A stretch of DNA of 50,503 bases, filler included, from Jimgerdemannia flammicorona (taxonomy: Eukaryota), in NCBI GenBank assembly GCA_003990765.1. It is 2 parts of 2 records of this genome, joined end to end, with 100 filler letters (N's around TTAATTAATTAA, not from the genome) between each part and the next. Parts side by side here need not be neighbours in the genome. Positions count along the whole stretch, not along the records: positions 25,306 to 50,503 come from RBNJ01000867.1; 1 more part is not named here. One strand, given 5' to 3'. Position 1 is the stretch's first letter. Each line of letters opens with the position of its first letter. The notes below the pieces were generated by a model. It had not been told where the DNA came from, did no database searches, and saw only the letters and a list, made by a program, of their open reading frames with translations. Made by a program: the position numbers and the translations under genes. Below are positions 7,064 through 48,629 of the stretch, in pieces.

Positions 7064-10000
7064 TGTAAGCATATAACCTCTAAGCCACTCAAATCACACA
7101 TTATCTCTAAACAAATCCAGAAATTATATATATAATCATGAAGCTGAGTCAAACTGAAGTTATAGCACACAAAGCTGAGTCAACTTGAAGTTACAGAAAA
7201 TAAGATTTACATAAACAGAATCTTACCAATTAGGACCAAATGTATATATATCAAGTACTGAGATATATCAAAATAAGAGAACTACAACAAACTAAATAAA
7301 CAACTTAAACTTCTAAACATATACATAAATATAACTACTAAGATCTACAACTGCATCTGTGCTGACATTTGGAATACTATTGTCAACTGAGCTGCACCTC
7401 CTCTGCCCCTTATGAATATCCATAGCTTAGCACCTCTCTACTTTATAGAAGTATGATAGAATGCCCTGAACATACTTAACAAGACCTATCAAATCAAATA
7501 AATCTCAAGCTACTATCAGATCAGTCACCTCCAAGAAGACTTGATCAAATACCACCATAATACCAATATTACCCAGATATTCCAATACCAGAAACTCATT
7601 GTCTGTAAATACAGAGAACTCTTATATGAGTACAGCTCTTTTATTTTCTATCTCTGAGTTATTATCACTAATATGGTTACAACTCTATCCTATAGTCAAT
7701 CAATAATATAATATAAGAACTCAACTACAAGTATATCAAGTATATTCAAACCACAGATAGAACCTTTCTATACCCTAATGACCACATTCTGCAAATTCCT
7801 CAAGTTGGATATGCCATAAAGAATATCTATAATATAATCTGATTTAATGATAATGAAGCAGAAGATAATAATCCCTTTGATGCTAACATGATCTTGAGCC
7901 AGAGATCTCTGCTAACTCTGATCACCTTATCAGTCTCACTGATGAACTTATAACAGTTCATAACCACCTATGAGACCTATTGGGATAATGACCACTGATA
8001 TGAATACTAGCCTATATTCACTCCCAATTACTTCAACTACAATAAAGAGACTGGAGAATACAACCTATATCTCCAGACAATCCTTGAGATTGAATCAACA
8101 ACCCTACTATCTGAGTATAAATGATATGAAGTACAACTACCAGTATACTACAACTCTATAACTCATAGTACCATAATCTATAGAAGGTATGCAGATAGCA
8201 AATTCAGACAATGTACCCCTCCTTCATCCACCAACTCCTTACTCAGTATATAAAATAGATAATGCTATTCTGTAGAATGGTGATGAAGTTCTAATATATT
8301 ATTATCTCAATGAATAGAGAGAAGTAATCTGCAAACCATTCTTCCTAGATGACTACTTCATCAGAGATAATATCATTGATAGTGATATTATCAAAGATTA
8401 CTCAGATAGCATCTAAATCTATAAATAGCTTAGCAGCCATTGGTATAGTTAGATTAGCCTTGTACAATATAACTATGAACTAACTCAGCAGTCAGATGAT
8501 CTTTTGACATATCAGATCACACTTATACTATATGACTGCATTCTGACTCAGCAAAGTATTAAGTACTATATTCATATTCAGCATAGTCCAGATAGCTCCT
8601 TACTAGTATAAATACCCCCTTCTTCAGACCTCAGAATCTCAGACTTGAATATATAGAATAATCTGAACACAACTTCTAAATACTTCTACACAATATTCCT
8701 TCACACAACTACTCCTAGTATAGCAATATCATGAATAGTAAATAAACCTATTTAATAACCCACAAACCACTTTTAAGTAAATTTACTTCCTGTTAGGTCT
8801 CACTTCTAACCCTATTATGAAATTTTCTAATTAGGTATTGTCTATAGTAATATGCTGATTCAACTAAGCTGGTCTTAGTTTCTTAAACTTCCTAAATTAT
8901 GGAAAATTCTGAATATTTAAAACTAGTCCAAAAAAGGACTTTGGTTGAGATGTCAACTCAATCTTGAAATCAATAAGTATAGAGGATATACTCTATATGA
9001 AATTGATCTTGACCTTAAGAAAATAGTCTTCCAGAATATCCAAAACATCCAGAAAACTCTTTCAAAACTATATAATGATTACTCTAATAGATAACCTTCT
9101 TACAACTTAGTAGCAGTAGTTTATAATCCAATTTTACTTTAAGATACTTCTTTACTCTGCTATAAACTACTTTAAGAATTCCTACAAATTGATATAAAGC
9201 CCAATCTCCAAACTGGAATTTATTCTGAACTATCTGACAATCTGGAGAGAATTGAATCTGATGTATAAGGACAATTTGACCTCCACACCTATAATAAGTG
9301 GAATAGACTTCATTTAAAGAAAGAAGTCTCTAATTAAATCAGCAGATAGACAAAACCCTATACACCAAACTCCTTGCTCTACACCCTGCAAGTCAAGATG
9401 AAGAAGGTCTTATAGAAGTCTTCTTTACTCTTCTCAACAAGAGTTTTGTCAGCTCCACAAATCTGAGTGACCTAGGATAACCAGCAGCAGTCTTTCTAGC
9501 CTTAGTTCCTCATGAAGCTCAAGCTTTCATAGCCAAGTAGCTCAACTCTACCAACTTTCACTGCACTAAGACCAAGACCACATTATACTACTACTTCCAG
9601 AATAGTAAGATCTGACATATTCTTAAGGAAGAAGCAAGAGAAACCCTTCATCAACAACCTGACTCTAAATTAGAAGCAGACCTAGCTACAATCTTACCTG
9701 CAACTGAAACCAATACTGAACCAGAACTTGATTTTGAATTAAGCCTATCTGAAATCTGATATATAACTGATTCTATCTACTTTGATATCAAGTAAACTCA
9801 ATTATACAGGAACCAAAGCCAAGAGGAGGAGGAGTATCTCAGTAAATTCAATCCCAGATATACTACTGAAGGAGACATACCTCCATCAGGACAGAACACA
9901 CCTATATAGAAACAGACAGCTATCTACTAAGCCCTTACTCCAGACTCACAACTATTACTCTAGCAACTTATATAGTCTCAAAGAACACTATCACACTCTG

Positions 10001-21854: not shown

Positions 21855-22030
21855 CCTAGCTTGCCAACACCCAGCCTGCCAAGCTTGCTGACACCCAGCC
21901 TGCCAAGCTTACTGACACCCAGCCTACTGAGCTTGCTGACACCCAGCCTGCTGAGTTTGCTGACACCCAGGTTGCCAAGCTTGTTGACTCCCAGCTTGCT
22001 GACCCTCAGCTTCCTGATCTCCAGCTTGAC
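21855..22030. repeat. 24-bp tandem repeat (CCCAGCCTGCCAAGCTTGCTGACA), ~6-7 copies
   Basis: Direct reading; produces the TPSLPSLL pseudo-ORF. Confidence 0.85.
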
Positions 22031-23690: not shown

Positions 23691-23713
23691 TATGTGCATG
23701 GATAAGCTCAGGT

Positions 23714-25055
23714 TGTGATACACTAGCTAACACACTCACCAGTATGTTTGTTGCTATCCATATTGATAGTCTCCTTTTACCAAAAATGTTATAAAAAGCA
23801 TTGTCTAAGTCTTATATTATCTGAATGTTACCAGTGAAAGATGCCATCTAAACATTCTGCTCTAAGTCCCTTAGTTATACTGAATTATACTGATATTCTT
23901 TTCCTGTATAACAGCTATTCCTCCACTGGCATTCTGATCTTATATAACTCAGAATTATTTTAGCACCCTTTTTCTATATCACCAAAATTATACCAGTATC
24001 CTGAACCTGTACAACCATCTGTGCCAATACTGAAACTTGGTAGTTTTTTGTATTCCAGTATTTTATTTAGTTATTGGAATTTATATTTAGCTTTATATCT
24101 TAACAACTATTGAATTATATTTTGTATAAATACCCCTTCTATTTCCTTTAAAATAAAGTCAGTCAAGTTTACTTATATATAATTCCTTATGAGCAATTTA
24201 AAGAGATAACAAGATAGTTTAAAGATAAGAAGTTTGAGAACTATAAGATCTTAAGAAGGTACTCCAATAAGAACTTACTTATAGCAAACTTGAGTTAGTC
24301 TAAGAGATATACTTTAAAGAGAATCTGATATATTTAAAGGACTCAGTGACAACTACATGACAACTTGGTGCCCATTGGCTGGTGATTCAAGATGAATCTC
24401 TCACTTTCAAGCTGAAAAATAAACAACTACCATAACAACTACCCTAACTACAAGAGTCATCTCTGCAAGAATTTAAGATAAGATAGAAATGTATCCCCCT
24501 ACATTCTACTGAAGAGTCAATCCTGATCTTTATTGAAGACTTTGAACAATTTGCTACTATATGAGCCCTTATCATAGATGTACAATTGACCCTTCTATCA
24601 GTCAGCCTCAGAGGACCTGTTAGAGATAAGTTCAATACAGCCACTATTGCTGATGCTGATGCAGTCAGACTTACCAATATGAAGACCTTTCTCAGAACTA
24701 CATACTATACTGAAGAGATCAAGTAAGCTCTCAAGGATTAACTTAATACTATTTTCCAGAGACTCAGTGAAGATCCTAACTCATTCTATATCTGAATCTA
24801 TCACCAGATTATCTTGACTAGCTATGATGACTACCTTAAGGAACAAATAGTAGATTCAACCTTCCTCAAAGGAGTTCACCCTGAAATTGCCCTAGCAATT
24901 TGGTCTACCCCAGCTATACTGACCCTTGATCAGAAAGTAGTCTTTGTACAGAGATATTGGACTGCCAGACACCCCACAAAACACTCAATGGAGAAAATAA
25001 CTGGCATTAAGATAGAGCTATCAAAGTCAACTAGTATCATATCTACCACAGTTGT

Positions 25056-25057
<2 letters not shown>
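23714..25057 (+). mobile_element. LTR retrotransposon stub (family D): putative 5' LTR 23714-24362, PBS, decayed gag
   Basis: TGTGA...TGACA with internal TATAAATACCCC, then ACTTGGTGCCC PBS. A gag-like frame FIEDFEQF...FQRLSEDPNSFYI...TFLKGVHPEI follows. Confidence 0.7.
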
Positions 25058-25094
<37 letters not shown>

Positions 25095-25205
25095 GTCACT
25101 TGGACGTCCCTTTATTATGCACTCTCTATAGATAATACATAAATGCCTCCATCCACCTTAACCGATGCCCCTTGGGTCCCCCTCCCCACCCACCCCACCC
25201 CCCTG
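25058..25205 (-). mobile_element. 3' terminus (poly(A), AATAAA, G-rich tract) of another LINE copy running into the gap
   Basis: Poly(T) followed by ATAGTCACTTGGAC...TTTATT, the same terminus as 25306 and 125. Confidence 0.8.
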
Positions 25206-25305
25206 NNNNNNNNNNNNNNNNNNNNNNNNNNNNNNNNNNNNNNNNNNNNTTAATTAATTAANNNNNNNNNNNNNNNNNNNNNNNNNNNNNNNNNNNNNNN
25301 NNNNN
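25206..25305. other. Artificial scaffold gap: N44-TTAATTAATTAA-N44
   Basis: Exactly 100 bp with a six-frame stop linker in the middle. Confidence 0.95.
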
Positions 25306-25479
25306 TTTTTTTTTTTTTTTTTTATAGTTACTTGGACTCTGCCATTTATTACCCGTCTATTAATAAATATACAGTTCACCCTCCCCCTACCCAATCCCCA
25401 TAGGGGTGCCTCTCCCCCTACTCATATGAACAAAGACCACTTTCTCACCCACAACACCAACCCTCCCCCCACTCTGCCT

Positions 25480-28400
25480 ATAGATTTGTTCTACCAAATG
25501 ACACCTGCGACCTCCCTTCAACCCCTAATCAAGCCACCAGCCCATCAAGGTGTCTTCCATAAGGCTCCGCTATCTCAGCAACCTGACCTTGGAGCCAAGT
25601 TTTCTCCCATCCTTAAAAACAAATAACCAGTGACTGGCCAGCCCTACCCAAATAGCCAAGGCCCAACCCAACATCAGCCACTCCTTCCCCACCCCCCCCA
25701 CCAGTCTTTCCCTTAAATCCTCCCAATGCCCCCACACTTCAGCTCTCCTACCCACTACTCCCAGATGCTCCCCAATGTTCTGCCAAAAGGTTCCAAGTAC
25801 CTCACACTCTCCTAGCCAATGTTCAGATATCTGTACATATCCCCCTTCCTGCCCTACATTATAACACTCTTCACAGTCGAAGCAGCCTCCCTCAATAAGG
25901 TGACCAGAGTGAAAGTTGAGCATGATATTTTGCCTCAGCATATACCACCAGACCACCCAATACTTCAGCAGCAGCCACCTCCTCACCTTGGCACTCCAGG
26001 CCCAAATGCTATGCCAGTCCCACTCCTCGCCGATTCCTACTCTCTGCCAACTGCTAGGCCACTGATCCTGGCCTGGTCCCCATTGGCATTTGATCCCATC
26101 CTCAATGTCAAACTCAATCAAGAGAATACTGCCTAGTAATACTCGGTCCCATCTCCACATCACTGGGTCCCAAGCCTCCTCCCCTTCATTCCCCTGCCAC
26201 CTAATTCCAATGCGGTGCACCCCCTCTGCCACTCCTCACCAGAAGCCTCTGAATCGCAATTGTCCAGAATTCTGAAGGCCCACAAGTGCTAGGAGATCAC
26301 CAGTCGAACCCCTTGGAGAGGACCTCATCTCCCAGACCTTCTGCAGTAGGGGAACCCAACCACTCCCTCCCAACTCCACCGCTCACTTCAGCCACCATAC
26401 TCGCAAACAGTGCAACCTCTTAGGAAAGTCAACCAGCCCAAGTCCCCCACTCGCCACTGGTAAGGACAAGACCTCCCAGCTGATCTGACTCCGCCTTCCA
26501 GCCCAGATCCACCCCTTGGCCAGCTTCATCAAATGCTTTACCACCCAAGCTGGGAAGTCCAGATGATAAGCCAGATACCACACCTTTGGCAGCCAATAGA
26601 TATTCAGAATTGAAACGTGTCCTGCCAGAGACAATTGGCAGCCCCCCCAACTCCGCAGGGCCTCCTCCCAAATGCCAACCTGCTGCTCCCACCAAAGTCT
26701 GGGCAGAACTGACCCATACACTGACAGGTAGATACCCAAGTACCTCACCACCTCACCAGCAGGGATAATTATACCAATAATCTCCCTGCCCACCAGACTA
26801 TTGCCTAACACCATTGTTTCACACTTATGCCAATTAAGTCTAGTCTCAGAGTTTGCCTCATACTACTCCACTGTCTCCTTGAGCTTCTCAACATCCGTAA
26901 TTGATTTCAGACTGACCACCATGTCATCTGCAAATGCCCCTACTTTCCACCTGATGCCAAAGATAGAGAGCCCTACTATCTTCTGCCAGATTCTGTCCAT
27001 GAAGGGATTCAGAGACAAAGCATACAAAATGGGGGATAGTGGGTCCCCCTGGGGCACCCCCCTACCCAGGGAAAATGCCACCCCTCTATGTCCATTACAT
27101 ATGAGTGCTGCCCTACTCCCTTCCAGTAGGCTGATCATGGCGGCCCTGAACTGTTGTGGGACCCCAATCCTATCCAGAACTTTTGCCAGCCAGACCTGTC
27201 GCACTCAGTCATAAGCCTTCTCTTGGTTCAAAAAGACCAGACACCCATCCAGTCCACTGGCTTGAACCCCTTCAATAATGCTGTACACCCATGCTGTATC
27301 ATCCCTGATGAGCCAGCCTCCCACAAAGCCCCGCTGCTCCTCACTCAAGACATGCTGGGCCACCTTTTGCAACCTTGCAACCACCACTTTGGTAACCAAC
27401 TTTCTGTCTATATCCAACAGCATAATCGGCCTCCAGTTCTTCCAGTCCTCTCAGCCGCCTTTGTTCTTATAAAGCAATGTCACCAGCCCTAGATCCTGTT
27501 CTCCCACCTATCTCCCTGTCTGTAGAATCCAATTCCACAGTGCCGTCATCTCTCCCAGTACTCCAGGGACTCCCACCATCCTTTTCCAGAAGTCCCAGGG
27601 CAGACCATCCTCCCCAGGTGCCGTACCCAAGGTTGTTGTGGCAAGAACCTGGTGGATCTCCTCCTCTAGTACCAGCAGTACTAAATCACCCAACCCATCT
27701 GCTCGGGTAGGGTACCAATTCTCCAATGCTCGATCAATGTCCTCAGCATCTGCCCCCCCCTCCTCCTTACTCCACAATCTACTCCAATGCTCCTTTAATG
27801 ATCCAAGAATATCTTGTACCCTATGCACCAATATGCCATCAGCATTAAACACCCCCTCCCACCTTTGCTGCACCCTTCTTGCCTGAAGGGCTCTCGTAAG
27901 AAACTTTGAGGGCCACTCTCCTTCCTCCAGTCCCTGCCAACGAAGTCTCGCTGCCAGACCCTGGACCCTTGCCTCTTCCTCATCCTGCAGTACCTGTTGT
28001 AGTTCCGCCACCTCCATTCGTAACCTTATCAATCACCAGTCCTCCTCCCCCTCTAATGTCGCCAGTCTCGCCCAGTCCTCCAAGAGTCTAGAAAGTCTAC
28101 TAGATGTCCACTGCACCTGCCTCCTCTTCTGTCTCCCAGCCTCCATACCAGCCTCACTCCAGAAGGTCCTGGCCATCTCCTTCATCCTCATCCACTGAAT
28201 ATCCACTGGGACCCCACACTGCCTCCAGCACTCCACCTGCAATTGAACTACTTCAGTCCATTTATTCCACCAGATCTTATCATCTAGTAAGGAGGAATTG
28301 AGGTGCCAATGTCCAGGCCCATCCCCACTTCCCCCAAAATGTCCCTGCCCTAAAAGCCCCAATGATCTGACCAAGGGCACCATTCTGCCTCCAGCGACTT

Positions 28401-29040
28401 CCAAACATCCAAGCCCCAGCACTGGCTGTCAGAATCCAATCAATCCTTGTCCCCAAGCCCCCGGCCCAGTGTGTGTACACCCTCCTATTCCCCCAGCATT
28501 CCCTACCCACATCTATCAGAGCACTCAGTCTTTCCACTTCCTCCCATGCCTCCAGTCCTCCACTCCGACCCACAGCCCCTCGTCCTCCATCAGTTCTATC
28601 CCTCAATACATCGTGGACCATATTGAAGTCCCCACCGAACACATCCACCCCAACATCTGCAAGAATTCCACTCTCCTGTAGGCCTGTCACCCACTCCACC
28701 CACTCACCCTGCACCGCAGGGCAATAACAAGAGCCCACTATGACAGGCTCCCAACCTGTGCATATCCACTCTCCCCAGACCAATCTATCTCCCCAGCTCT
28801 GCACATCCTGTACCTTCCCTCTGCCTTTCCGCACCAGAATTCCAACCTTGCCCTTCCAGACTGCCTCACCTCCCCACTCCTTCATCCATTCCAATCTATC
28901 TAAGTCATCCTCACACCTGACATCCTGCAAGAGGAAGAGATCAGCCTCCAATTCCTTCAGCCAAGTAAAAATGTTCCTACATTGATAAGCCCCCTGTAAC
29001 CCATTCACATTCAGGAAAAAATGTTGGTTGTACTATTCAT
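25480..29040 (-). pseudogene. LINE ORF2 (APE endonuclease - reverse transcriptase - Cys/His domain), with stops and frameshifts
   Basis: Consecutive ORF pieces 28280-29008, 28033-28422, 27508-28032, 27205-27423, 26863-27204, 26383-26814 and 25570-26232. Confidence 0.9.
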
Positions 29041-29049
29041 AAGGAAGAT

Positions 29050-31105
29050 TATATAGTTTCAGATGAGTCCTTTACTGCTCCATGTCCACTTTCTCCTATG
29101 CCCTATCCAGGTCGTGCTCAGCAATAACTTCTTCTTTCTTGGCCCTCTTAGCCTCCAATTCAGCCAGGATCTCAGCCATCTCCCCATCCTTCTTTTCCTC
29201 AAACTCCTCATGGTACTCTATACAAGCCTCCTGCCAGAGCTGCAGTCCATGCTGCTTAGTCCAACAGTGCGCAGCCTGCTCACCCGCCATGACTGCCAGA
29301 GTAGCTTCCCTCTCCTTATCCACCTCATACCCCTCTTCCTCCAAGTATACTACCAGAATTTCTGCCTTCAATGCTGCCACCACTCCATCACCCTGCAGGA
29401 TCCTCGTCCAATGCTCATCGCTCATCACCCGGAGGTCAACTTCCCCCAGCTCCTCTGCCACCAAGTTGTTCATCATCCGGTACACCCAAAGCAAGTTTCC
29501 CACCTCCTTCCCTCCTGGGGTCGCTGGTCTCCCCCCATCCAACATTGTAGTGTCAGCCCCTATACTCACCAACTCATTCCATCCCTCCTCTGGGACATCC
29601 ACCAATTCCTCTTCCCCAGTCACCTCTACCAATCCCCCCTTTGCCACATTTGGGACTCCAAAGCATACCTGCTGAGTACCGTGCATCGGCACATCCTCCA
29701 CCACTCTACGGCTTGCCACCGGACCCCTTCTGATAAGGGGAGAGGGTGAAGATGAATCCTCCCAGGTTTCCTCCCAAACCTCGAGTGTGCCATCTTCATA
29801 TGGATTCCTGCTCGGCCCCTTCCCAGCCTCCATCTGCCCCTCCTCCTCATTCTTTCCACTCTCAGCAGCCCAGACACTCACCTCAGCACCTCCCGTGGTT
29901 GCACCATCACTTGCCTTCCTCATCGCCCCTGCCCCCATTTTCACCAAAAATTTCCTCTGCCTTCTGCATCCTTGAGACCTCTCCCACACCTCCTTGTTGA
30001 TGCGAACTCTCTTCCCTCCAACCACCTCAAGATGCCTTGCCTCCTCGAATGCCTTCCAAGCCTTCAACCTCCTCTCCACCACCCCACTCAACTCCTTCAG
30101 CACTTCCAGCAAATCCTCCTCCTCCTCCTCGCTCCCCTTTACTCTCGTCACCTTACACAAGAAAGCCCCTCACACTATCACTGAGGGCCAGTCCCAAGCC
30201 TTCCCAGCAGCCTCCCTCCCGGCCAACCGAATCCTGACATCAACATCCCCTGTCTGGAGGGAGGTTCCTTCCCACACTCTGAACCCAATATCGACCACCT
30301 CCCCATACTCTGCCATGATCTCCTCAACCCTCTTCCTCATCTCTACAGCAGTAACTGTGGGAACTCCTTTTACAAGAAGCTGTACTACTCTTGGGTCCCA
30401 CCTCAGGCATCTCATCATCAGTATGCATACCTCACACACTTTCATTCCAGCCTTCAAAGCCTCCTCCAGTGGTCCAGCCTCCTCAAATCCCACCTCTACC
30501 CCTTCTAGGCCCTTCAGGAACTTAACAGATGCTGCACCACTCATCTGCTTCATGATCAGCCCCAGAACTATTTTTGCCATCACCACTAAGCCCTGGAAAC
30601 ACATCGTGACTGCAAATTACGAGATCGACTTTTTGAGTAACAGAGCCACCGCCAGTCCCATTACACCATCCACCAGGTCCCCAGGCCTTGTGCCCTTCCC
30701 ACTGCTCAGCTCATCATCAGCAGTCCCATCTAGATTTTTTTCCAGATTGCCCATCACACCTCCATCAGCAGTCCTCACCTCAGCCGCAACCCCCCCAGCT
30801 CCACCCCTATGGCCCTCCAGAGAGGTACCCCCAAGAGGTTGCTGTCTTGTGGCCCTCACTGGCACCTTTTCCCCCCTCAGCCAGCTCTCCAGTCCAGCTC
30901 CCTGCTGACCCCCCTTCACCTTCTCTGCAAAACTCACTCCGCCAGACCCTTGACCCCCAGCTCCGCCCCCTCCTCCACCACATCCTCCTGCCAGCAGGCC
31001 CCTCATACTTCCCCCCAGGCTGGGGCCTCTCCCTACTTGCTGCCATTCGAATGCTCCAGGGCCACCCTGCCCAGTATGCACCTCAGAATGCTTGTTGGTT
31101 GCCAT
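29050..31105 (-). pseudogene. LINE ORF1 (Gly-rich N-terminus, possible RRM-like segment, acidic coiled-coil C-terminus), disrupted
   Basis: ATG at 31105 (MATNKH...); ORF pieces 30617-31105, 30170-30604 and 29096-30160 lie directly upstream of ORF2. Confidence 0.75.
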
Positions 31106-32211
31106 GATACTAGTAGCTTGTCTCCAGAAACTGTGTCGAAAGTGTTGAGTGCAGCCAAGACACCTGAAATGGGTAGCCTCGGGCCTCCTGACCCCCCCTG
31201 ACGACTGGGGCCCAACCCCGCTGACCACCAAAAGAAGCTGATAGTGACACCTACCACCTAACTACGCCGCACCAATCAAAAGGCCCCACTGAAGCAGCAC
31301 CTGCCCCAGCTCTGATGACCACCCCCAGCCTGGCACCCTACTGGTTCACCATTATCGCCCTTCCTCCTATCTGTGACGGCCATCTCCCCTCTCATCCCGA
31401 CAACACCCGAAAAACAGTCACCTACGCCAGAACCGTGCTCGCCAGGAAGCTCACCAAAGCCAGAGGGCCCCACCACAGGCACCGAGGACCTGCAGGTAAC
31501 CTACACTGAGCACTTGACACCCAAGGTCGGCCGACTCCCTATGTAGCCCAAGACACACCGAGACAACTCCTTGTTGGTGACGGCAAAAGGAAGAAGGCGC
31601 CGCACCAAAACGGGTATACCCCAGATGTAGCCGAAGGCACCAGAATCCATGAAAAAGTGGAGGAAGTACCGATCCGACACCAATAAAGGGGCAACTCATC
31701 ACCATTGCCCTCCTCCCACCATATCCCTGCAGGCACAGCAAACCAACCCGAGGTAGAGGGGGTAATAATAGGGGAAAGGGGACTCGGAAGGTCACCTACC
31801 AAACCTTATAACTGGTAAGGTAGCGGAGAAAGGAGCTAGTGCTACATCCATATCTAGCATAGTCTAGATAGCCCCTCACTAGTATAAATACCCCCTCCCC
31901 CAGACCTCAGAATCTCAGACTTAAACAATTTGAATACAACTCCTGAGCACTTCCCCACAATATCCCTTCATACAACTACTCCTAGTATAGCAATATCATG
32001 AATAGCGAATAAACCTATTTAATAACCCACAAACTACTCTTAAGTAAATCTGCTCCCTGTTAGATCCCACTTCTAACCCTGTCATGAAATTTCCTAATTG
32101 GGTATTGTCTGCAGCAATACGCCAATTCAACTAAGCTGGTCTTAGTTTCTTGAACTTCCTGAAATACGGAAAATCCTGAACATCCAGAACTAGTCTGAAA
32201 AAGGACTTTGG

Positions 32212-35200
32212 TTGAGACATCAATTCAATCTTGAAATCAATAAGCGTAGAGGACATACTCCATATGAAATTGATCTTGACCTTAAGAAAACAGTATTTCA
32301 GAATATCCAGAACTTTCAGAAAACCCTTCCAGAACTACGTAACGGTTACCCAAAAAAGCAACCCTCTTACAACTTGGTAGCAGCAGTTTACAATCCAATT
32401 CCGCTTCAAGACGCTTCCTCACCCTGCTACAAACCCCTCTGCGAATTCCTACAAGTTGGTATAAAGCCCAACCTCTGAACTGGAATTTATCCTGCACCAT
32501 CTGACAATCTGGAGAGAATTGAACCTGACATACAAGGACAATTTGACCTCCACACCTGTAACAAGTGGGACAAACTTCACTCAAAGAAAGAAGTACTCCG
32601 ATTAAACCAGCAAATAGGCAAAATCCTATTCACTGAACCCCTTGCACTACACCCAGCAAGTCAAGATGAAGAAGGTCTTATAGAAGCCTTCTTTACTCTC
32701 CTCAATAAGAGTTTTATCAGCTCCACAAATCCGAGTGACCTAGGACAACCAGCAGCAGTCTTTTTAGCCTTAGTTCCTCATGAAGCCCAAGCCTCAGTAG
32801 CCAAGTGGCTCAACTCTACTGACTTTCACCATACCAGGACCAAAACTGTATTATACTACTAATTCCAGAACAGTAAGGCCCACTATATTCTTAAAGAAGA
32901 AGCAAGAGAAACCCTTCATCAACTACCTGACCCTGAACCAGAAGCAGGCCCTGCTACAGCTCTACCTGAATCAGAAACCAACACTGAACCAGAACTTGAC
33001 TTTGAATTAAGTCTATCTGAAATCAGATATATAACTGATTTCATCTACTTTGACACTGAGCAAACTCAATTCCATGGAGACCAAACTATAGAGGAGGAGG
33101 AGTATCTCAGTGAATTCGATCCCGGATACACTACCGAAGGAGATACACCTCCATCAGGCCAGAACATACCTACACAGCAACAAACAGCTATCTATCAAGC
33201 CCACTCCAGACCCACAACTACTACTCCAGCAACTTATACAGACTCAAAGAACACCCTCACACTCTGCATCAGTACCTCAAGTAGTACCAGTAACACCACT
33301 ACCAGTAGTCCAACCACCTCCAGTAAACAATTTGGCAAACCAACAGATTCTAGACCTCACAGCCCAGGTAGCCATAATGGCAGCAACCATTACTGCCTTA
33401 GCCGAACAAACCCAACCTACCAAAAATCTGAGCCTACCTACCTTCAATGATACTGCACAAGAAGTTCAAAGCTTCATTAGTATAGTTGATACCAACTTTG
33501 AAGTCAATCAATGGACTAATGAGTGAGTTGCTGACCATCTTCTGACAAACAATCAAGACCACACTCTGGAACAACTCTTTGCTACTACAGCCTATGTCCA
33601 CCAAGTTGTTATATTCTTCTGAGGACCTGTCGAAGAATGGTGGTGAACTCTTCCTGAAAAACTCCTTATATGGGATATCCAACCTGCAGTAGTTGCTCAG
33701 AATGCAGCAAACAATGCCCCAGGATATGGAGCCCATCCTGCAGCCTCTGGACTCAAACAACTCATGATTGCTCAATACCGCAGCGAAACCATGATTGCTG
33801 AATCTCAAGTAAAACTCTGCAATCTCAAATTCAATGTACATGGCAAAGAAGAATTCGAAACCTTCTGTACAAAACTCGAATCACTCCTGAATATCATTGG
33901 CCTAGAATACATTGCCAATGACAAAGCACGAAATGGTATAAGAGCAGACCATTTATTCAATGTCCTGCCGGAATGGCTTACTAGAAAAATCCGAGAACAA
34001 GGCTGCTCAGTTGGTTGTGATCACCAACAATGGTGCCTAGCAAGAATCAAGACTATGGTCAAGCGAATCCTAACAGCTGGACCAATGCTGCCCTGAAGAC
34101 AATTCAACAACAAGGAAAAGACTTGGACCAAGAAAGAAGAACCCAAGCATGAAGCATCCCAAGCTCCCTCCACATCCACCTTATGGACACCCAGAAATCA
34201 TGAACCCACTCAGCTGAGTACCTTTAAGAAACTCACTGAAGGAGAAAGGAATGAACTCCGAAGAAGTAGAGCATACTTCTATTGCTGAAAGACAGGATAC
34301 ATAGCCAGTACCTGCCCTAACCGAAAACCCCGAACAGCAACAAGAGCAACAGTTACCATGCTGCACCACCTAAACAACCTGACTACCAGAATACTAGACT
34401 TTGTCAAGTTAAGATAAACTGCGAAGGCCCCAACCAAAGGAAGTCAAATAGCAGCTGGATATGACCTGTATGCAGCTGAAGAAGCTACAGTTTCTAACTA
34501 AGAAGTCAAGCAAGTCTACACAGAAATCAGTATCCAAATTCCTGAAGGACATATTGGAAGAATATGCTGTCGCAGCAGCCTAGCACTGAAAGGACTCTCA
34601 GTAGAAGGAGGAGTCATTGATGAGGATTATACAGACGAAATTATTGTCCTCATCCGAAACCACAGTTGGACACCCTTCAAGATCCCCATAGGTTTCTACA
34701 TTGCCCAGATCCTATTCAAAAAAATTGAGTCAACTCTGACAGTCAAAGAGGTCCCTGAACTACTGCCCACCATCTGAGGATCCAAAGGATTTGGCTCATC
34801 AAAAAAGGCCCCAGTCTAACCTACTATGAACAAAGAAGAACAATTCTACAAGAAAATTGAAGACGGATATATACCAAGTGACTGATGCCCTCATGGCATT
34901 GTAATGTACTCTTCCCGAATGATTGATGATTTCTTCTCTTGTGTCAATGAACTGGCTCAAAGAAGAACCAACAGAAGGAAAGCTCCCACAACTGAAATCA
35001 CTACTATTAGATCAGACAAACTGCTTACACTTAAAGCTTTTGTTAATCAAGCACCAGTCAAGATTATGATTGACAGCGGTACTTCCAGGAATTTCATCAA
35101 TGAAGAAACAGCCAACAGACTCAAGGTCTTCACCTCTCCAGTACAACAAACTCAAGCAGTTGCTACAGCTGATGGAACCTCACATGTCATTAGCAAAGAA

Positions 35201-38200
35201 GTCCACAACCTATCCTTCCGAATTGGTAACTATCGAGTACATATTACTCTCCAAATTGTACCACTTCCTGACAATGAGATCATTCTTGAAACACCATGAT
35301 TGAACCAAGAGAACCCCATGATCGATTGGGTAAACCATTCTCTGACCATTAAGAAAGGATGCCATAATTTCAAACTGCAAGGTGAAAAGGACCCACTCAA
35401 CTCTAGCAACCCTGGACCAAAGATCACTCATATCAACAAGCTACAACTTAAGAAATTAGCCAAGAAATGCCCTTTCTTTGCTATCTCTATCTGCCTATCC
35501 AAAGGAGAACCTGAGAACTCTGAAGAAGACTTTTCCAAAGTCAACAGCTGTATTAGACCCCTACTCCAGAAATTCTGAGACATATTCCCAAAGAAGCTTC
35601 CGAAAGGCCTACCTCCTAAACGAGCAGTAGACCATGCGATCAAGACCATTCCAGATGTCAAGCCAGCCTTCAAGTCAATCTACCACATGTCTCTGAGAGA
35701 AATAGATGCACTCAAGAAGGAAATAAATGAACTCCTAGAACAAGGATTCATCAGACCCAGTATATCACCCTATGGTGCACCAGTCCTCTTTGTTGTAAAG
35801 AAAGAAGAAGACCTGCGAATGTATATTGATTACCGAGACCTTAATGAACAGACCATCAAGAACTGTTGCCCACTATCAAGAATCGATGAAATATTCGATA
35901 GGCTTACCAACTCACAATTCATGAGCTCTTTTGATCTATAAAATGGTTACTGGCAAATTGCTATGAAAGAAGAAGACATCTACAAGACAGTCTTCCAAAC
36001 CCACTATGGACACTTCAAATTCCTAGTTATGTCCTTTGGCTTAACTAATGCTCCAGCAACCTTCCAGACCCTGATGAATACCATCCTATACCCCTATCTA
36101 GACAAATTTGTTGTTGTCTATATTGATGACATCCTAGTCTTCAGCAAAACTCTGGAGGAACATCTCAAACATCTTGAACTAGTACTACTGAAACTGCGAG
36201 AAAACCGACTCTTCACAAAACTCAGCAAATGCGAATTTCTCCTGAAAGAAATTCAATTTCTTGGACACATTGTCACACCAAATGGAATCAAAGTGGACCT
36301 CAGCAAAATCTCCACAATCAAAGATTGGCCCAGACCTAAGAAGCTGAAAGACCTCCAGTCATTCCTAGGACTAGCAAATTATTACAGGCGATTTATTGCT
36401 AACTTCACCAAGATTGCTACTGCCCTGACTCAAATGACCAAGCATAGCAAGAAAGAGGAACAGCCCTGGACCACGAAACAAGAGAAAGACTTCAACAACC
36501 TTGTAAATTGGGGACCCAAACAAGATACTGCCTTTCAAGCACTAAAGGATGCCCTGATAACTACCCCAGTACTTCAAGCAGCAAATTCTGCTCTGCCATA
36601 TAAAGTTACTACTGATGCCTCTGACCTAGCTCTTGGAGCAGTACTCATGCAAGAAGGACACTCTGTGGCCTATCACTCCCGCAAGTTCAATGATGCTGAA
36701 ATTAACTACACAACTCACAAGAAGGAAATGCTAGCCATTGTAGACACTCTGATCAAATGGCGACCCTACCTAGAAGGAGCACACTTCACTATATTGACTG
36801 ACCACAAGTCATTAGTTAACATCAAGACCCAGGCTACTCTTTCTTGAAAGCAAGCCAGATGGATGAAAGTCCTCACCAACTTTGACTATGAAATCCAGTA
36901 CCGCTCTGGCAAGGAAAACATTGTTGCCGATGCAATCTCCAGACCACTAATTGAAGAAGTTATCCAAACCCTCACCTTGGTTACAAACTCCATCATGGAA
37001 CAAATTATCACAGTATGTGCTGATGATAAGGAAGCTCAAGTACTTCGAGAAATCCTAAATAGTGACAATGCTGATAAGCATACCCAATATCATCAATACC
37101 AACTCAAGGACAATGCTATCTACTACAAGAATAGATTGTATGTTCCAAACAACCGAGACCTCCGAAGGACTATCCTATTCGAATGTTATGATGCACCTAT
37201 AGCTGGACATTTAGGATTTAACAAATGCTATGAAGTTATCTTCTGAAACTTCTATTGGCCCCACATAGAAGATCAGCTAAAAACCTACATTACTTCCTGT
37301 GATGCCTGCCAACGCAATAAGTCCTCAACACTAGCAAAACCTGGCCTACTCCACCCTATCCCGGTACCATCTGCAAATTGGGAACAAATCTCTATAGACT
37401 TCATTATACAACTACCCTGAACAAAGAATAGGAAGGATGCAATTGTTATCTTCATAGACTATCTCAGCAAACAGGCCTACTTTGTGCTAACTACTACTAC
37501 TGCAATAGCACCAGACATAGCCATACTCTTGTTTGACAATATCTTCCGCTATCATGGTCTTCCTAAGATTATTGTTAGTGACCAAGATCCAAAATTTACC
37601 AGCCATTTTTAGAAAGCCCTCCATGCACACCTTGGAACAAAACTTGCACTATCCACAGCCTTTCACCCTGAAACCAATGGCCAAACCGAAAGAATGAACC
37701 AAACTCTGGAACAAATACTAAGAAACTATGTTTCCTACAGACAAGATGATTGGTATGAACACCTCACTGCAGTTGAGTTTGCCTATAACAATAGCAAGCA
37801 AGCCTCTCTTGGAATGACCCCATTCTTTGCCAACACTGGACAAAACCCAAACACTTCTCTGACACTTATCTGAACTACTGAAGAACTCTCCACAGTTGAA
37901 GCTATTGAAGAATTCCTGCTCCAAATGCATAATCTAAGCTAGATCGCAATTGAGAATTTATCACGAGCTCAAGAACAACAGTCACAGTATATTAACCAAC
38001 ACCACCAAGAAGAAACCTTTGATATTGGAGAAAAAGTTCTACTAGATATCTGAGGATACTGAGTTGACAATCTTAAGCATAGACCATCTACAAAACTGAA
38101 CAGTAAGTTCATAGGACCATTTGAAGTCATTGCATAAGTCTCTCCAACCTCTTACAAATTGATGCTACCAGACATCATTAAGATCCACCCAGTCTTCAAT

Positions 38201-38461
38201 GTCCAATGTCTCAAGTGATACAACAAGAATGATGATGAACTATTCCCAAACCAGACCACTGAACCACCTGCATCTGTCATTATTAATGATCAAGAAGAGT
38301 ACAAAGTTGAACAAATCCTCAACAAATGTGGCCACAAGAACCACCCTGAGTATTTTGTCAAATGGAAAGGATACCCGATTCATGATGCAACATGGAAACC
38401 CAAGACCAACCTCCAGAATGCTACCAACTTAGTTCAGGAATATGATTTCTTGAACAACTAA
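32212..38461 (+). pseudogene. B2 polyprotein frame (N-terminal extension - Gag - zinc knuckle - dUTPase - PR - RT - RH - IN - chromodomain)
   Basis: Consecutive ORF pieces joined over single stops. A 2-nt deletion at ~33200 is absent from the B1 copy. Confidence 0.85.
34394..34800 (+). pseudogene. dUTPase domain of B2
   Basis: AAGYDLY...GRICCRSSLA...GGVIDEDYTDEI...IAQILF...*GSKGFGSS: all five trimeric dUTPase motifs. Confidence 0.95.
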
Positions 38462-38860
38462 AAACCTGAATACTCCAATACCTACTAGTACATACTATAT
38501 ATTACTCTCCTGGACACTATAATTATCATGAACAAAATCAAGAACTCAGCAAGTCAAGACAAAAAATACTGACCCTCTAGAAAAATAGCAAAACTGAAAG
38601 CAAGCCTATTCTCCTTATACCACTGGTGGAAAACGAGGCATAGACATTTAAGAAGATTCCTTAGAGGAAATTCTCCAGCAGTGAATGACATCAGAATCAC
38701 TTCCGGTGCACAGCATCAAATATATGACCCTTTAATGTGTGAATCTAATACATTAGGCAACTGTACTATGAGCATGTCACCTTCTGAGAAAAATGGACTT
38801 CACCAGACTTTTGACCTTCTAAACGGTATAACAATACTAGAACTAAATTAGAAGGCTCCG

Positions 38861-40345
38861 TGTAAGAGGGTTGCTTTTTAGGGTAACCGTTACGTAGTTC
38901 TGGAAGGGTTTTCTGGAAGTTCTGGATATTCTGGAAGACCGTTTTCTTATGGTCAAGATCAATTTCGTATGGAGTACGTCCTCTATGCTTATTGATTTCA
39001 AGATCGGGTTGACGTCTCAACCAGAGTCCTTTTTCGGACTAGTTCTAGATGTTCAGGATTTTCCGTATTTCAGGAAGTTCAAGAAACTAAGACCAGCTTA
39101 GTTGAATTGGCATATCGCTGCAGACAATACCCAATTAGGAAATTTCGTGACGGGGTTAGGAGTGGGACCTAACGGGGAGTGGATTTACTTAAGAGTGGTT
39201 TGTGGGTTATGAAATAGGTTTATTCGCTATTCATGATATTGCTATACTAGGAGTAGTTGTATGAAGGGGTATTGTGGGGAAGTACTCAGGAGTTGTGTTC
39301 GGATTGTTCAAGTCTGAGATTCTGAGGTCTGGGGGAGGGGGTATTTATACTAGTGAGGGGCTATCTGGACTATACTAAATATGGATATAGCACTTAGTGC
39401 TTTGCTGAGTCGGAATGCAGTCATGTAGTACAATAGTGATCTGACAGGTCAAGAGATCGTCTGACTGCTGAGTCAGTTCACAGTCACGTCGTATAAGGTT
39501 AATCTATCTATACTATGACTGCTAGACTATTTATAGGTTTAGGCACTATCTGGTTAGTCCTTGATGACATCACTATTGATGACATCATCGCTGGCAAAGT
39601 CTGAGTAGTTTTCTGACTTCTGACATCATCAGTTTCAAGGTGTCGTCACTTCTATCTCTTGTAAGATTAAGGCTGTCCTTAGTGGCGGTGGTTGTACAAG
39701 GATAACAGGTCTTGGTTCTCTTTTTTTTTGGTCTGCTGGCACATTTGCGAGGACTGGCCATTCTCGTCTAGGGCGAGGGCTCCCAATGTCGCAGCTGGGG
39801 GTTCGAACCTCTCGGAAATGATATTTTCTGTAATCCGAGACAATTTCTAGTAGTAATATCTGTCACATGGATGGCTTGAGATTGGTTTCGATGTTGTCGG
39901 CTTTCTTGAGTTCAGATGAAGTGTCCGTCACTCTCCGACGGAGATGACATAGATAGAGCGAACAGAGTTGTTCAAATGCGTTTTGCTTCTGCTAAGTAAT
40001 GAGGTCTTGTATAGTCACAGTGTGTCTTGGTCTTGAGTTGATAAGTGCAGTTCGTGAACCTTTTGGTAGATGAGATAGGGTTCTTCTTGTCTCAATTTGA
40101 GTTTGGTACTTTTCGGTTTCTTTTTGTAATAGTACAGTACACCAAACTAGTTATAGCAGTTCAGAATCAGTCTTATGGTTGTAGTACTTCTTCTAGTATT
40201 CTTGTATCTTGGCGGTGGGTTCTCGTACTTGCTGGCATATTTCGTGTAACCAGATGATCTCTTGTTTTGTGGTCTCGCATGTGGTTTCCAATTTAGTTCT
40301 GAGGATGCCATGCGATTTTGGTGGCTTGGAGGTTGTGTGCTTACA
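38861..40345 (-). mobile_element. Solo LTR of a family-B variant (1485 bp) inserted in reverse orientation 36 bp upstream of the B2 3' LTR
   Basis: TG...CA ends. 38861-39590 is the reverse complement of ~41685-42412, and 40270-40345 matches the LTR start. TSD CTCCG/CTCTG (38856-38860, 40346-40350). Confidence 0.9.
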
Positions 40346-40381
40346 CTCTGAGAGGACATCGAAAGCTAAGAAGGGGAGAGT

Positions 40382-42412
40382 TGTAAGTACACAACCTCCA
40401 AGCCACTGAAATCACATGTGACCTTCAAACAAATCTGAAAATCACCTGCTTGATCATAAAGCTGAGTCAAACTGAAGTCACAGCACACAAAGCTGAGTCA
40501 ATATGAAGTCATGGAACACAAGATTCACACAAATGGAATCTTACCAATCAGGACCAAATGCATATATATTGAGTACCAAGACACGTCAAAATAGAGAACC
40601 AAAACAAACAATAACTATAACTTCCAAACACACAAACATGACCACTGAGATCTACAACTGTATCTGCGCTGACATTTGGAATGCCATTGTCAACCAAGCT
40701 ACACCCCCTCTGCCCTTCATGAATATCTATAGTCTAGCACCCCTCTACTTCATAGAAGCCCAATGGAATGCTCTGAACATGCTTAACGAGACCCACCAGA
40801 TCAGACAAATCTCAAGCTACTACTAGATTGGCTGCCTCCTGGAAGACATGGTCGAACACCACTATAACACAGACATTACCCAGATGTCTCAACACCAGAA
40901 ACTCATCGTCCGCAAATACAGAGAACTCTTCTATGAGTACAGTATCTTTATTTCTTGCCTCTGAGTCACTACCAGCGAAATGGTTGCTACCCTGTCCTAT
41001 GGCCAAATCGACAATATGATATAAGAACTCAACCATAAGTACCTCAAGTATGTTGAAACTATAGACAGAACCTTCCCACACCCCAATGATCATATCCTGC
41101 AAATGCCCCAAGTCAGATATACCATGAAAGATGTCTACGATATAATTCACTTCGATGAAGATGAAGTAGAAGACAATGATCTCTCTGACACTGACATGAC
41201 CTCAAGCCAAGGATCTCTACCAACCCTGATCACTCCACCAACCTTGCTGATGAACTTACAATAGTTCATAACCACCTACAAGACCTATTGGGACAATGAC
41301 CACTGGCATGAATACCAACCTCTATTCACCCCTAATTACTTCAACTACAATGAAGAGACCAGAGAACACAACTTATATCTCCAGACAACCCTCAAGATCG
41401 AACCAACCACTCAACCACCCGAGTATGAGTGACATGAACCACAGCCACCAGCTTACTACAACCCTGCGACCCATAGTACTGTAACTTATAAAAGGTACGC
41501 AGACAGCGAATCCAATGAAAGTGAAGATAATGCACCCCTCCTTCGCCCACCAACACCTTATCCAGTATATGAGACAGATAATGCAATCCTGTGAGATAGT
41601 GATGAAGTTCTGATGTATTATTACCTCAGCAAACAAGGAGAAGTAATCCGCAAACCACTTTTCCTAGATAACTACTTCATCAGAGATGATGTCATCGATG
41701 GTGATGTCATCGAAGACTACCCAGACAGTGCCTAAACCTATAAAAAACTTAGCAGTCAAAGTATAATTAAATTAGTCTTGTATGACATGACTGTGAACTG
41801 ACTCAGCAGTCAAGTGATCTCTTGATATGTTAGATCACACTTGTACTACGTGACTGCATTCCGACTCAGCAAGGCACTTAGTGCTATATCTATATCTAAC
41901 ATAGTCCAGATAGTCCCTCACTAGTATAAATACCCCCTCCCCCAGACCTCAGAATCTCAGACTTGAACAATCCAAACACAACTCCTGAGTACTTCCCCAT
42001 AATATCCCTTCACACAACTACTTCTAGTATAGCAATATCATGAATAGCGAATAAACTTATTTAATAATCCACAAACTACTCTTAAGTAAATCTGCTCCCT
42101 GTTAGGTCCCACTCCTAACCCTATCACGAAATTTCCTAATTGGGTATTGTCTGCAGCAATACATCCAATTCAACTAAGCTGGTCTTAGTTTTTTGAACTT
42201 CCTGAAATATGGAAAATTCTGAACATCCAGAACTAGTCCGAAAAAGGACTTTGGTTGAGACGTCAACCCAATCTTGAAATCAATAAGCATAGAGGATGTA
42301 CTCTATACGAAATTGATCTTGACCTTAAGAAAACAGTCTTTCAGAATCCAGAACTTCCAGAAACCTCTTCCAGAACTATGTAATAGTTACCCAAAAAAGC
42401 AACCCTCTTATA
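40382..42412 (+). repeat. 3' LTR of B2 (2031 bp); TATA-like TATAAATA at 41925, AATAAA at 42050
   Basis: Follows the PPT and is collinear with 7064-9104. Its 3' part matches 31837-32371. It ends TA (CA in other copies). Confidence 0.92.
40638..41735 (+). pseudogene. ~365-codon ORF of unknown function inside U3 of the family-B LTR
   Basis: ATG 40638 to TAA 41735 in one frame (MTTEIYNCICADIWNAIV...DDVIDGDVIEDYPDSA) with six internal stops and no frameshift. Confidence 0.75.
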
Positions 42413-42610
42413 GAGTGCTTAGTATATATATATTCAGTTCTGATTGGTAAGATTCTATTTATATAAATCTTATATTTTATAACTTTGAGTTGACTCAGCT
42501 TTATACTCTATAACTTCAGTTTGACTCAGTTTTGTAATCTTATATGTGATTTCCAGATTTGTTCTGAGGATGATGTGTGATTTCAGTGGCTTGAAGGTTG
42601 TGTACTTATA
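42413..42610 (-). mobile_element. First ~200 bp of an older family-B LTR, opposite orientation, into which B2 appears to have inserted
   Basis: The reverse complement starts TATAAGTACACAACCTTCAAGCCACTGAAATCAC and is collinear with 40382-40580; it is cut exactly at the B2 end. Confidence 0.85.
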
Positions 42611-43679
42611 AATTCTGAATAAAACTCCAAACCTTTCTCTGAGGTATATTGGAATAAGTAGCAAGGTGAGGTACATTAGGATGAGCAGTAAGACAAGATG
42701 TTAGAATATAAGACAGAGCATTGAGATGAGAGGCAAGGTGTTGAAATAAGTAGTGAAAAAAGGCATAATAAGGTAAGGTACAGGAAAAGAGCAATGATGC
42801 AAGGCTCTCTTCTCCAGGAAATATATTGAGCTAGTGTGGAGAGCCAGTATAATAAGAATCCTAAATAAAACTCCAAATCTTTCTCCAAGGCCATGAAGGC
42901 CATTGCTATTGAGGTGCATAGCATATCAGTGATGGTGCTGAGAATATGAAGCACCACATATCACATTTCCAGACATGTGACTTAAAAATCTTTCAGCCAT
43001 GTCACCCAAAAAAACACAATCTAAAAAAATACCATAATGCTATAGACCACCCCCTGTTATAGATAATATTCATTAAAAAATAAGAAAGTTAATATAATTA
43101 TATATTAATAAATATTGGTGCAGCTCTCACAAGTATACTTGTAACTTGCATCATATAATGCTAAGGAACGATGAATCATGAAATCACCACATCCTGATAG
43201 AAGTGTTGTGAAATTACCACCCCTGATATAGAAAAAGTGTTGCGAAATTATCACATCCTGATATAAAAGAAATTGCTATGTGAGTTGCAAATCTACAGAG
43301 TAATAATTATTATCTTTTCGTATTTTACACATTGATGTATTCTTTATTTTTATTATCATTATATAATTATCCATAAGCTTTAGTCACTGTGAATATTTGG
43401 TTGAATAAAAATGGTTTTGTACTCCATAACATGGCCCGAATTTGACCCGCTCGAACAGGCAGTTAAACTGAGTTTTGACGACTCATAGTACATGAAGGAG
43501 CAGACCAACTATGTTTTTCAATTTTTAAATCAAGTGCATATTTTATTGATCACCACCCCTCAGAATACAAGACATCAGGAGTTATTATCTATAGGAAATA
43601 TCTGTCTAGCATATTTCTCCTTTGGTTTTGTTGGTGTCAAAATCACTAAACTAGTAAACACTTTAAGTGTTGGTAAATT

Positions 43680-47450: not shown

Positions 47451-48629
47451 TTTTTTTTTTTTTTTTTGTTTTTTGTCTTTTTTTTCCCCTAGTTTTTTTT
47501 GTTTTATAGACTCTATGTCCCACAGATTTTTATTGGAAGGGAACCTAGACTATATAGACCAAAACCCTCCCCCACCACCCATCAAGTACTGCCAGGTGTA
47601 GCAGGGCAAAGTACCCTGCATCTCATTCTGCACACCATACTCTCCCTACCACCAGGGGAAATCCAGCCATATGTCAATGACCAAAAGCATATATCTGAGA
47701 ACCTAATATATATACAAGGCCATGCTCGAGCCAAATAGAATAGCCCCTGCCACCCCAAAGAGAATGACAGGCAAAGAAAAAACCCTCATCAAAGTATAAT
47801 ATAGTGGGTAGGACCTGGTTCTCCCAGTCAAGGTGAGTAGAGGACTTACATGTGAGGTAGGAGAAGACCCCCAATACTCCACTACTCAAGCCTGTAGGCC
47901 TTGATCACATTGCCATGTCAGCTCCTGGTTCCAGTTGAGTACAGCCAAGACACCTGAAATGGGTAGCCTCAGGCCCCCCGACCCCCCCTGACGACCGGGG
48001 CCCAACCTCATGAATTGCCAAAAGAAGCCAAGAGTGACATCTATCACCTAACCACACCGCACCAATCAAAAGGCCCCACCGAAGCAGCACCTGCTTCAGC
48101 TCCGATGACCACCCCCTGTATAGCACCCTATTGGTTCACTGTAATCACCCTTCCTCCTATCTGTGATGGCTATCTCCCCTCCCATCCCAACATCACCTGA
48201 AAAACAGTCACCTATACCAGAACTGCACTTGCTGGGAAGCTCGCCAAAGCCAGAGGGCCCCACCACAGGCACTAAGGACCTGCAGGTAACCTACACTGAG
48301 CACTTGATGTCCAAGGTCAGCCGACTCCCTATATAGCCCGAGACACACCGAGACAGCTCCTTGTTAGCAATGGCAAAAGGAAGAAGGCACCACACCAAAA
48401 CAAGTATACTCCAGATGCAGCTGAAGGCACCAGAATCTGCAAAAAAGTAGAGGAAGCACCGATCCAACACTGAGAAAGGGGCAACTCATCACCATTGCCC
48501 TCCTCCCACTATGCCCCTATAGGCACAGCAAATCAACCTGAGGTAGAGGGGGTAAAAATAGGGGAAAGGAGACTTGGAAGGTTGTCTACCAAACCCTGTA
48601 ATCAGTAAGGTAGCAGAGAAAAGAGCCTG
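47451..48629 (-). mobile_element. Complete non-autonomous retroelement: LINE 5' UTR + unrelated ~430-bp 3' part + poly(A)
   Basis: 47934-48626 is collinear with 31144-31836. Poly(T)-rich tail at 47451-47505. TSD TCTGCAAYATATTC at 47437-47450 and 48630-48643. Confidence 0.92.

Follow-up and report, generated by a model that had tools for sequence, protein, structure and literature searches.

A solo long terminal repeat with a replaced U3 block, nested in a retrotransposon of Jimgerdemannia flammicorona

The 50,503-nucleotide stretch of Jimgerdemannia flammicorona DNA analyzed here (the window; all coordinates are positions along it) is a nest of decayed retrotransposons, as seen by self-comparison and multiple alignment, and contains a solo long terminal repeat (LTR) of 1485 bp that we refer to as B type, to distinguish it from the 2-kb A-type LTRs in the same window. 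The B type is a real and mobile sister LTR with a replaced U3 block that is present in many copies. We suggest that it belongs to a minority LTR subfamily of a dUTPase-bearing chromovirus (Ty3/Gypsy), and that it is an ordinary U3 variant and probably a recombinant, a reading to which we assign a probability of about 0.7. The block that is missing from the B type is a protein gene carried by the 2-kb LTR; there is no evidence that the 670-bp block found in its place is a gene or that U3 is a designed slot.

Structure of the B-type LTR and its copies in other runs

The B-type LTR has the ends TGTAAG...CTTACA, with the 5' end TGTAAGCACAC at 40345 and the 3' end ..CTCTTACA at 38861, and is flanked by a 5-bp target duplication (CTCCG/CTCTG) in which 4 of 5 positions match. 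We place it on the minus strand because all of its BLAST matches in the window are inverted. In these searches its shared 3' part matched the complete 2-kb LTR A3 (query 3-733 to 42410-41681, 90.0% over 732 nucleotides), the truncated LTR A2p (query 1-534 to 32371-31838, 93.1%) and the older LTR A1 (query 1-733 to 9104-8362, 83.0%), and its 5' terminal part matched the fragment A4p (query 1404-1483 to 42529-42608, 78.75%, E 2.5e-13) and again A3 (query 1406-1485 to 40460-40382, 76.25%, E 1.6e-9). The interior between these parts (query 734-1403) had no BLAST match and no second copy in the window, and 7-letter words also gave nothing above chance. The stretch that it replaces is 1219 bp long in A3 (40382-42412), and a Smith-Waterman alignment of the A and B interiors scored 26, which is at chance level (23.4 ± 2.0, maximum 31, in 100 shuffles). 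A purine/pyrimidine-coded alignment, in which transitions are ignored, gave no improvement, and tblastn with the open reading frame (ORF) of the 2-kb LTR against the B-type LTR matched only the two shared ends. A sequence-only reading made earlier had described a solo LTR that has both ends in common with the 2-kb LTR and an unrelated segment between them. This description stands in all particulars except the strand: the last 733 bp are 83-93% and the first ~80 bp 76-79% identical to the 2-kb LTR, 670 bp have taken the place of 1219 bp, and the target duplication together with the single interior copy in the window agrees with a solo LTR.

The B type thus keeps the ~80-bp 5' end, presumably the integrase-recognition end, and the promoter-proximal U3 with its TATA box, R and U5. 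A TATA-like box (TATAAATA, B position 997) and an AATAAA polyadenylation-type signal (B position 1122) are kept in all four LTR copies that cover these sites, and the swapped block, which ends 245 bp upstream of the TATA-like box, lies wholly within the inferred U3. Over the last 534 bp, the B type is 92.5-93.1% identical to both LTRs of element 2, the retrotransposon in which it lies, and these two are 92.3% identical to each other; the differences among B, A3 and A2p over this stretch are nearly all transitions.

In an index of public sequencing runs, 20 rows from 13 studies hold part of the B-type LTR, at most 0.40 of its words in any row. We compared four runs from four studies (X1, X4, X5 and X19; three soil metagenomes and one organism), in which contigs over the B-type LTR are at most 324 nucleotides each. 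The interior is present in every one of 30 bins for X1, X4 and X19 and in 19 of the 30 for X5, with a depth relative to the shared 3' part, to be read as contig depth, of 0.19, 0.19, 0.40 and 0.11 (X1, X4, X19 and X5, in this order). In X1, as many as 25 distinct contigs overlie a single interior position, and the identity of contigs to the interior ranges from under 90% to over 99% (85-99%). Among the 32 listed pieces, the joint between the interior and the 5' end is bridged by record 16 of X19 (40025-40345) and record 8 of X1 (40207-40337), and loose ends at 40261/40263 mark further copies with a small insertion at this joint. At 39593/39594, the 3' joint, other contigs continue into A-type sequence (loose ends in X4 and X19), and loose ends of the primer-binding site (PBS) type at 38861 may derive from A-type copies. 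The proposal that this is a sister LTR and not a peculiarity of one locus is supported by coverage of the interior in all four runs and by listed contigs that bridge it to the shared 5' end.

The same runs contain the empty site. To the right of the B-type LTR, 36 bases ending in the polypurine tract AAGAAGGGGAGAG lead to A3, and seven contigs from three of the four runs continue the internal region of element 2 into this 36-base stretch without the B-type LTR (joints 38792/38812/38839/38843/38860 to 40352/40361). As judged from these sequences, a B-type element was inserted into the 3' untranslated part of the older, A-type element 2, and this insertion would later have collapsed to a solo LTR by recombination between its own two LTRs.

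Coding capacity of the two U3 blocks

The 2-kb LTR carries a real, albeit decayed, protein gene in U3. In A3, which served as a positive control, the ORF has 8 stops compared with 23 and 32 in the other frames (0 of 300 shuffles as good), a codon-usage score (log2 units per codon) of +0.215, which none of 400 shuffles attained, and a period-3 power of 5.68 versus 0.72 for shuffles (0 of 300). A protein search with this ORF returned one match, the databases being thin for this lineage. P0003, an intact homologue of 247 amino acids on a 998-bp contig, is identical to it at 153 of 250 positions (61%) and belongs to no Pfam family; the stops in A3 correspond to Q, Q, Q and W in P0003. The same frame is present in A1 (7064-9104), and upstream of the ORF in A3 (40464-40979) a weaker coding signal is seen in the same frame. 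Just past the shared 80 bp, the A-type U3 (40455-40510 on the plus strand, also in A1 and A4p) holds two copies of GCTGAGTCAA..TGAAGT that are absent from the B type at the corresponding place; we take TGAGTCA to be an AP-1/Gcn4-type site. A precedent for a protein gene in U3 is sag ('LTR ORF') in the LTR of the betaretrovirus mouse mammary tumor virus (MMTV). Both sag and the A-type gene lie in U3, but they are related neither in sequence nor in host, and the B type has no such gene. A literature search for an ORF inside the LTR of a retrotransposon listed two plant papers on unrelated matters.

Of this gene, the B type has kept the final 25 codons, stop codon counted (codons 245-269 of frame 1; ENYSDFASDDVINSDVIKD*PDSA*), with a 6-nucleotide in-frame indel and one private stop. 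The tail aligns to A1 and A3 and to the C terminus of P0003 (DNY--FIRDDVIDDDLIAEYPDS; 12 of 23 identical), and three stops lie no more than 10 codons upstream of it. Because the tail is conserved in a protein that is 61% identical, it belongs to the gene, and the B tail is read as a relic. On this sequence comparison, the B type would most likely descend from a gene-bearing LTR rather than the reverse.

For the interior itself, the earlier reading had pointed to a 269-codon frame with about eight stops, no early ATG and the same C-terminal codons as the other LTR, and to a second stop-poor frame. These observations are correct: frame 1 has 8 internal stops and a terminal stop, its single ATG lies at codon 160 with a stop directly after it, it ends in the shared codons, and the second frame has 8 stops in 268 codons. 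The step from there to a coding cassette found no support from frames, codon usage, periodicity, homologues or Pfam. The three sense frames of the interior have 8, 7 and 7 stops and none stands out (best frame P = 0.10, 300 dinucleotide-preserving shuffles), and the longest ATG-started ORF on either strand of the B-type LTR is 70 amino acids. The codon-usage score, trained on the gag-pol frames of the window, reaches +0.023 in the best interior frame (P = 0.23), and the period-3 power is 1.29 versus 0.75 ± 0.43 in shuffles (P = 0.10). The 18 listed interior variant sites are distributed 5/6/7 over codon positions 1/2/3, and all 11 listed interior indels (lengths 1, 2 or 11) break the reading frame. 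When the majority letters with the best support (29, from 40 listed of 237 variant rows) are put in, none of the 7 interior frame-1 stops is removed, only the private stop in the shared tail; as far as these letters give a consensus, the 7 stops persist and it contains no ORF.

Database searches gave the same picture. Frame 1 had no match among 1.84 billion representative proteins, a word-indexed protein search with frames 1 and 2 had none among 173 and 153 candidates, respectively, and the six frames of the interior contained no Pfam family. Given that the A-type gene drew only one database match, the empty protein searches are weak evidence alone. In JGI metagenome contigs, the frame-1 translation of the interior matched 463 pattern stretches of which 0 were confirmed, and a 48-nucleotide transition-tolerant IUPAC pattern (39760-39807) had 0 matches there and 0 in IMG/VR. 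P0003 and the reverse transcriptase (RT)/RNase H ORF found nothing in IMG/VR, and a look-alike index search with the B interior, the A interior, the shared 3' part and P0003 returned none.

One property of the interior is nevertheless left unexplained by a purely non-coding reading. Its sense strand has 22 stop trinucleotides compared with 39.7 ± 3.9 expected (0 of 500 shuffles as low), and this depletion is unchanged when the sequence is shuffled within 67- or 134-nucleotide blocks. Of the 64 trinucleotides, none is depleted more strongly than TAA and TGA, and the strongest enrichment is that of TAC. The stop depletion, which may be due in part to a recurring GTAC motif, spans all three sense frames and is absent on the antisense strand and in the shared part. 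A frame-hopping path through the interior costs 4 versus 6.9 ± 1.5 (P = 0.036).

Other identities of the interior were tried and set aside. A structured RNA was rejected on fold z-scores near zero (+0.35 and +0.46, no structure signal). ARAGORN at default settings found nothing, and no Rfam family was found. Only with the -ps90 option did ARAGORN call a tRNA-Leu(TAG) at 39742-39821 (+), followed by TTTT, in the GC-rich core; at this setting 7 false calls arose in 20 shuffled windows, the Rfam tRNA model had no match on 171 bases even at E <= 10, and an origin from a tRNA or a short interspersed nuclear element was rejected as chance. Two weak matches to microRNA models at 40310-40416 are merely two LTR 5' ends face to face, and a scan for bacterial promoters and terminators has no bearing on a eukaryotic LTR. 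A secondary transposon insertion was likewise set aside, the interior having no direct or inverted repeats, be they internal or terminal, and no significant match elsewhere in the window.

Origin of the B type and competing readings

When a retroelement replicates, both LTRs receive their U3 from the 3' end of the genomic RNA. A change in U3 between the attachment end and the promoter therefore passes to all progeny as long as transcription, strand transfer and integration persist. We suggest that in the B type the gene body and the region upstream of it (1.2 kb) were replaced by 670 bp of unrelated sequence, with only the last 25 codons remaining. This replacement may have originated while RNAs of diverged relatives, packaged together, were reverse transcribed, by copy-choice recombination between them. 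R-U5 would then either have been exchanged later with the A lineage or have been held constant by selection. The divergence between B and A3 is mosaic: the 199 bp adjoining the breakpoint contain 9 transversions and the final 532 bp contain 4 (Fisher P = 0.0017); between A1 and A3 the corresponding numbers are 3 and 6. Such a pattern agrees with the joining of a U3 of a longer-diverged lineage to an R-U5 that was exchanged recently or is under stronger constraint.

Several points weigh against this account. The even similarity in R-U5 could reflect selection instead of recombination, the borders of U3, R and U5 were drawn by motif only, no donor of the 670 bp was found, and the stop depletion described above does not follow from a non-coding interior. 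Among the listed pieces, the 3' joint at 39593/39594 is bridged by record 20 of X4 only, with 25 shared-side letters, below the 31-letter rule, and the detail taken from contigs rests on 32 listed of 2600 pieces and on 40 listed of 237 variant rows. Contig depth is not copy number, and 'minority type' is a rough statement. Moreover, as no full-length element with two B-type LTRs was seen, the case for the B type serving in a full cycle of transposition depends on the target duplication and the copy number.

Alternatively, the interior could be what decay or frameshifts have left of a different, second cargo gene fused to the same C-terminal tail, in which case U3 would be a true gene slot. Frame 1 is in phase with the shared tail and has the least negative codon score of the frames, the sense strand is strongly depleted of stops with TAA and TGA affected most, and the frame-hopping path is cheaper than expected. 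However, being in phase with the tail is a 1-in-3 chance, a depletion in all frames with 8/7/7 stops is unlike that left by a single ORF, and the sole ATG of frame 1 is followed by a stop. The codon and period-3 tests, the spread of variants over codon positions, the frame-breaking indels, the stops retained by the majority letters and the absence of protein matches and Pfam families argue in the same direction, and we consider a second gene improbable. A broader version, in which U3 between the attachment end and the promoter acts as a cargo slot with contents swapped at the conserved flanks, the 670 bp being a scrambled ORF or a non-ATG or spliced gene and the stop depletion its trace, is in our view doubtful to much the same degree. 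Thus, of the interpretation offered by the sequence-only reading, the recognition of a sister LTR type holds, and the 'exchangeable cargo slot' over-reads what is ordinary modular variation of U3.

The order of events could also be turned around, with the gene-less B-type LTR as the ancestor and the 2-kb type as its descendant after gene capture. A short non-coding U3 is usual in LTRs, and the B-type LTR is the least decayed copy, with a CpG observed/expected ratio of 0.68-0.71 versus 0.34-0.36 in A3 and 0.00 in A1. However, CpG content dates the insertion of a copy and not the origin of a type, the B type is in the minority in all four runs, and a relic is the better explanation for the presence of the last 25 codons and the stop of the gene, aligned to the conserved C terminus of P0003. 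We regard this order as unlikely. The idea that an ordinary 2-kb solo LTR underwent a rearrangement or secondary insertion here and nowhere else would agree with the single interior copy in the window and with its absence from JGI metagenome contigs and IMG/VR. It is hardly tenable given the many distinct contigs at 85-99% identity in four of four runs from four studies, the bridged 5' end and an interior without terminal inverted or direct repeats.

LTR subfamilies that differ only in U3 are already known, and the one special point of the B type is that the missing block is a gene. For crapaud, from the species complex of Podospora anserina, the part of the source consulted describes 14 LTR subfamilies that differ in the 5' half (U3), with conserved R/U5 and with recombinants, and proposes template switching between co-packaged RNAs, gene conversion and promoter selection as causes (PMC10787394). 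Crapaud and the B type are alike in their U3-restricted variation with a shared R-U5. They differ in that no LTR gene is reported for crapaud in that part of the source (PMC10787394), whereas here one variant has an ORF and the other its last 25 codons; also, the decay seen here is CpG loss and not repeat-induced point mutation (RIP). In the Solanaceae, Tnt1A/B/C and Retrolyc1A/B have a shared backbone and share most of the LTR but have unrelated U3 regulatory regions, which the portion of the source at hand terms 'modular evolution' (PMC1838419). These are plant Ty1/Copia elements with, in the same portion, short U3 boxes, as opposed to a 0.7-1.2-kb block including an ORF here (PMC1838419). 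Experimental recombination during reverse transcription is described for ONSEN in Arabidopsis, and the junctions lie, according to the section consulted, for the most part in R (first strand transfer), with one in U3 (PMC5668417). ONSEN thereby offers a mechanism for joining the U3 of one lineage to the R-U5 of another; unlike the case of the B type, its parents are, according to that section, close family members and no unrelated block was exchanged (PMC5668417).

Taken alone, the B type is ordinary modular U3 variation, and its value is that of a natural control for the gene in the neighboring 2-kb LTR. That a gene-minus LTR is multi-copy in several soils suggests that transposition does not require the LTR gene in cis, and matched gene-plus and gene-minus LTRs could be used to probe the function of this gene.

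The surrounding nest of retrotransposons

The features discussed here are collected in Table 1. Pfam searches of element 2 identified dUTPase, aspartic protease, RVT_1, RNase H, integrase (H2C2, rve), SH3_Tf2-1 and chromodomain in frames broken by stops, and to judge from these domains element 2 is a Ty3/Gypsy chromovirus that bears a dUTPase. The PBS-like sequence TGGTAGCAGCAG follows the 5' LTRs of the A family.

Table 1. Positions of the B-type LTR, its parts and neighboring elements in the window
Feature	Position	Strand	Remarks
Solo LTR, variant B type	38861..40345	-	1485 bp; self-BLAST and alignment
5' terminal part	40264..40345	-	82 bp; common to the 2-kb LTR at 76-79% identity
Variant U3 interior	39594..40263	-	670 bp; without window match, frame-specific coding signal or RNA-structure signal; sense stop trinucleotides depleted
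Shared 3' part	38861..39593	-	733 bp; promoter-proximal U3, R, U5 (internal borders inferred by motif)
TATA-like box	39342..39349	-	
AATAAA polyadenylation-type signal	39219..39224	-	
Relic of the gene tail	39539..39613	-	Last 25 codons including stop
Target-site duplication, left copy	38856..38860	.	CTCCG
Target-site duplication, right copy	40346..40350	.	CTCTG
Element 2, internal region	32372..38860	+	PBS-like sequence, dUTPase, protease, RT, RNase H, integrase, SH3_Tf2-1, chromodomain; all decayed
Polypurine tract of element 2	40368..40380	+	Two bases ahead of the 3' LTR
A3	40382..42412	+	2-kb A-type 3' LTR of element 2
Decayed LTR-borne ORF in A3	40980..41735	+	Part aligned to P0003
A2p	31838..32371	+	Last 534 bp of the 5' LTR of element 2; remainder cut off by another repeat
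A1	7064..9104	+	Older A-type LTR; internal region follows at 9105-11119
A4p	42414..42611	-	First 198 bp of a further A-type LTR; abuts the end of A3

At CpG sites that differ between B and A3, CG is kept by B in 11 and by A3 in 3. Together with the CpG ratios given above, these differences suggest that decay proceeds by CpG loss and that the B-type LTR is the youngest copy, in agreement with its nesting inside element 2. Transitions make up most of the differences among A1, A3 and the B-type LTR. The decay of these copies looks like methyl-CpG deamination rather than classical RIP, and CpG loss in nested copies orders the insertions in time.

A3 directly abuts the inverted first 198 bp of A4p (42412-42611), from which element 2 seems to have been inserted into an LTR of its own family. 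Such nested insertion would fit chromodomain-guided targeting. The stretch from ~25050 to 31836 on the minus strand is G+C-rich (52-55%), with an Exo_endo_phos endonuclease domain at 28280-29032 (-) and a poly-T at ~25050-25090, and looks like a long interspersed nuclear element (LINE)-type element that truncates the 5' LTR of element 2 at 31837; the end of this stretch (31144-31836) recurs at 47934-48626 with 86% identity. A second dUTPase-bearing Gypsy family is found at 2892-6985 (+) and 13013-19030 (-), ~69% identical in pol and with LTRs of ~400 bp. Its LTRs at 13013-13416 and 18631-19030 are 94% identical, and its copy at 3726-6985 is split by A1. Outside the retrotransposons, tandem arrays lie at 21834-22025 and 22775-22992 (both with a 24-nucleotide unit) and at 23416-23727 (33 nucleotides).

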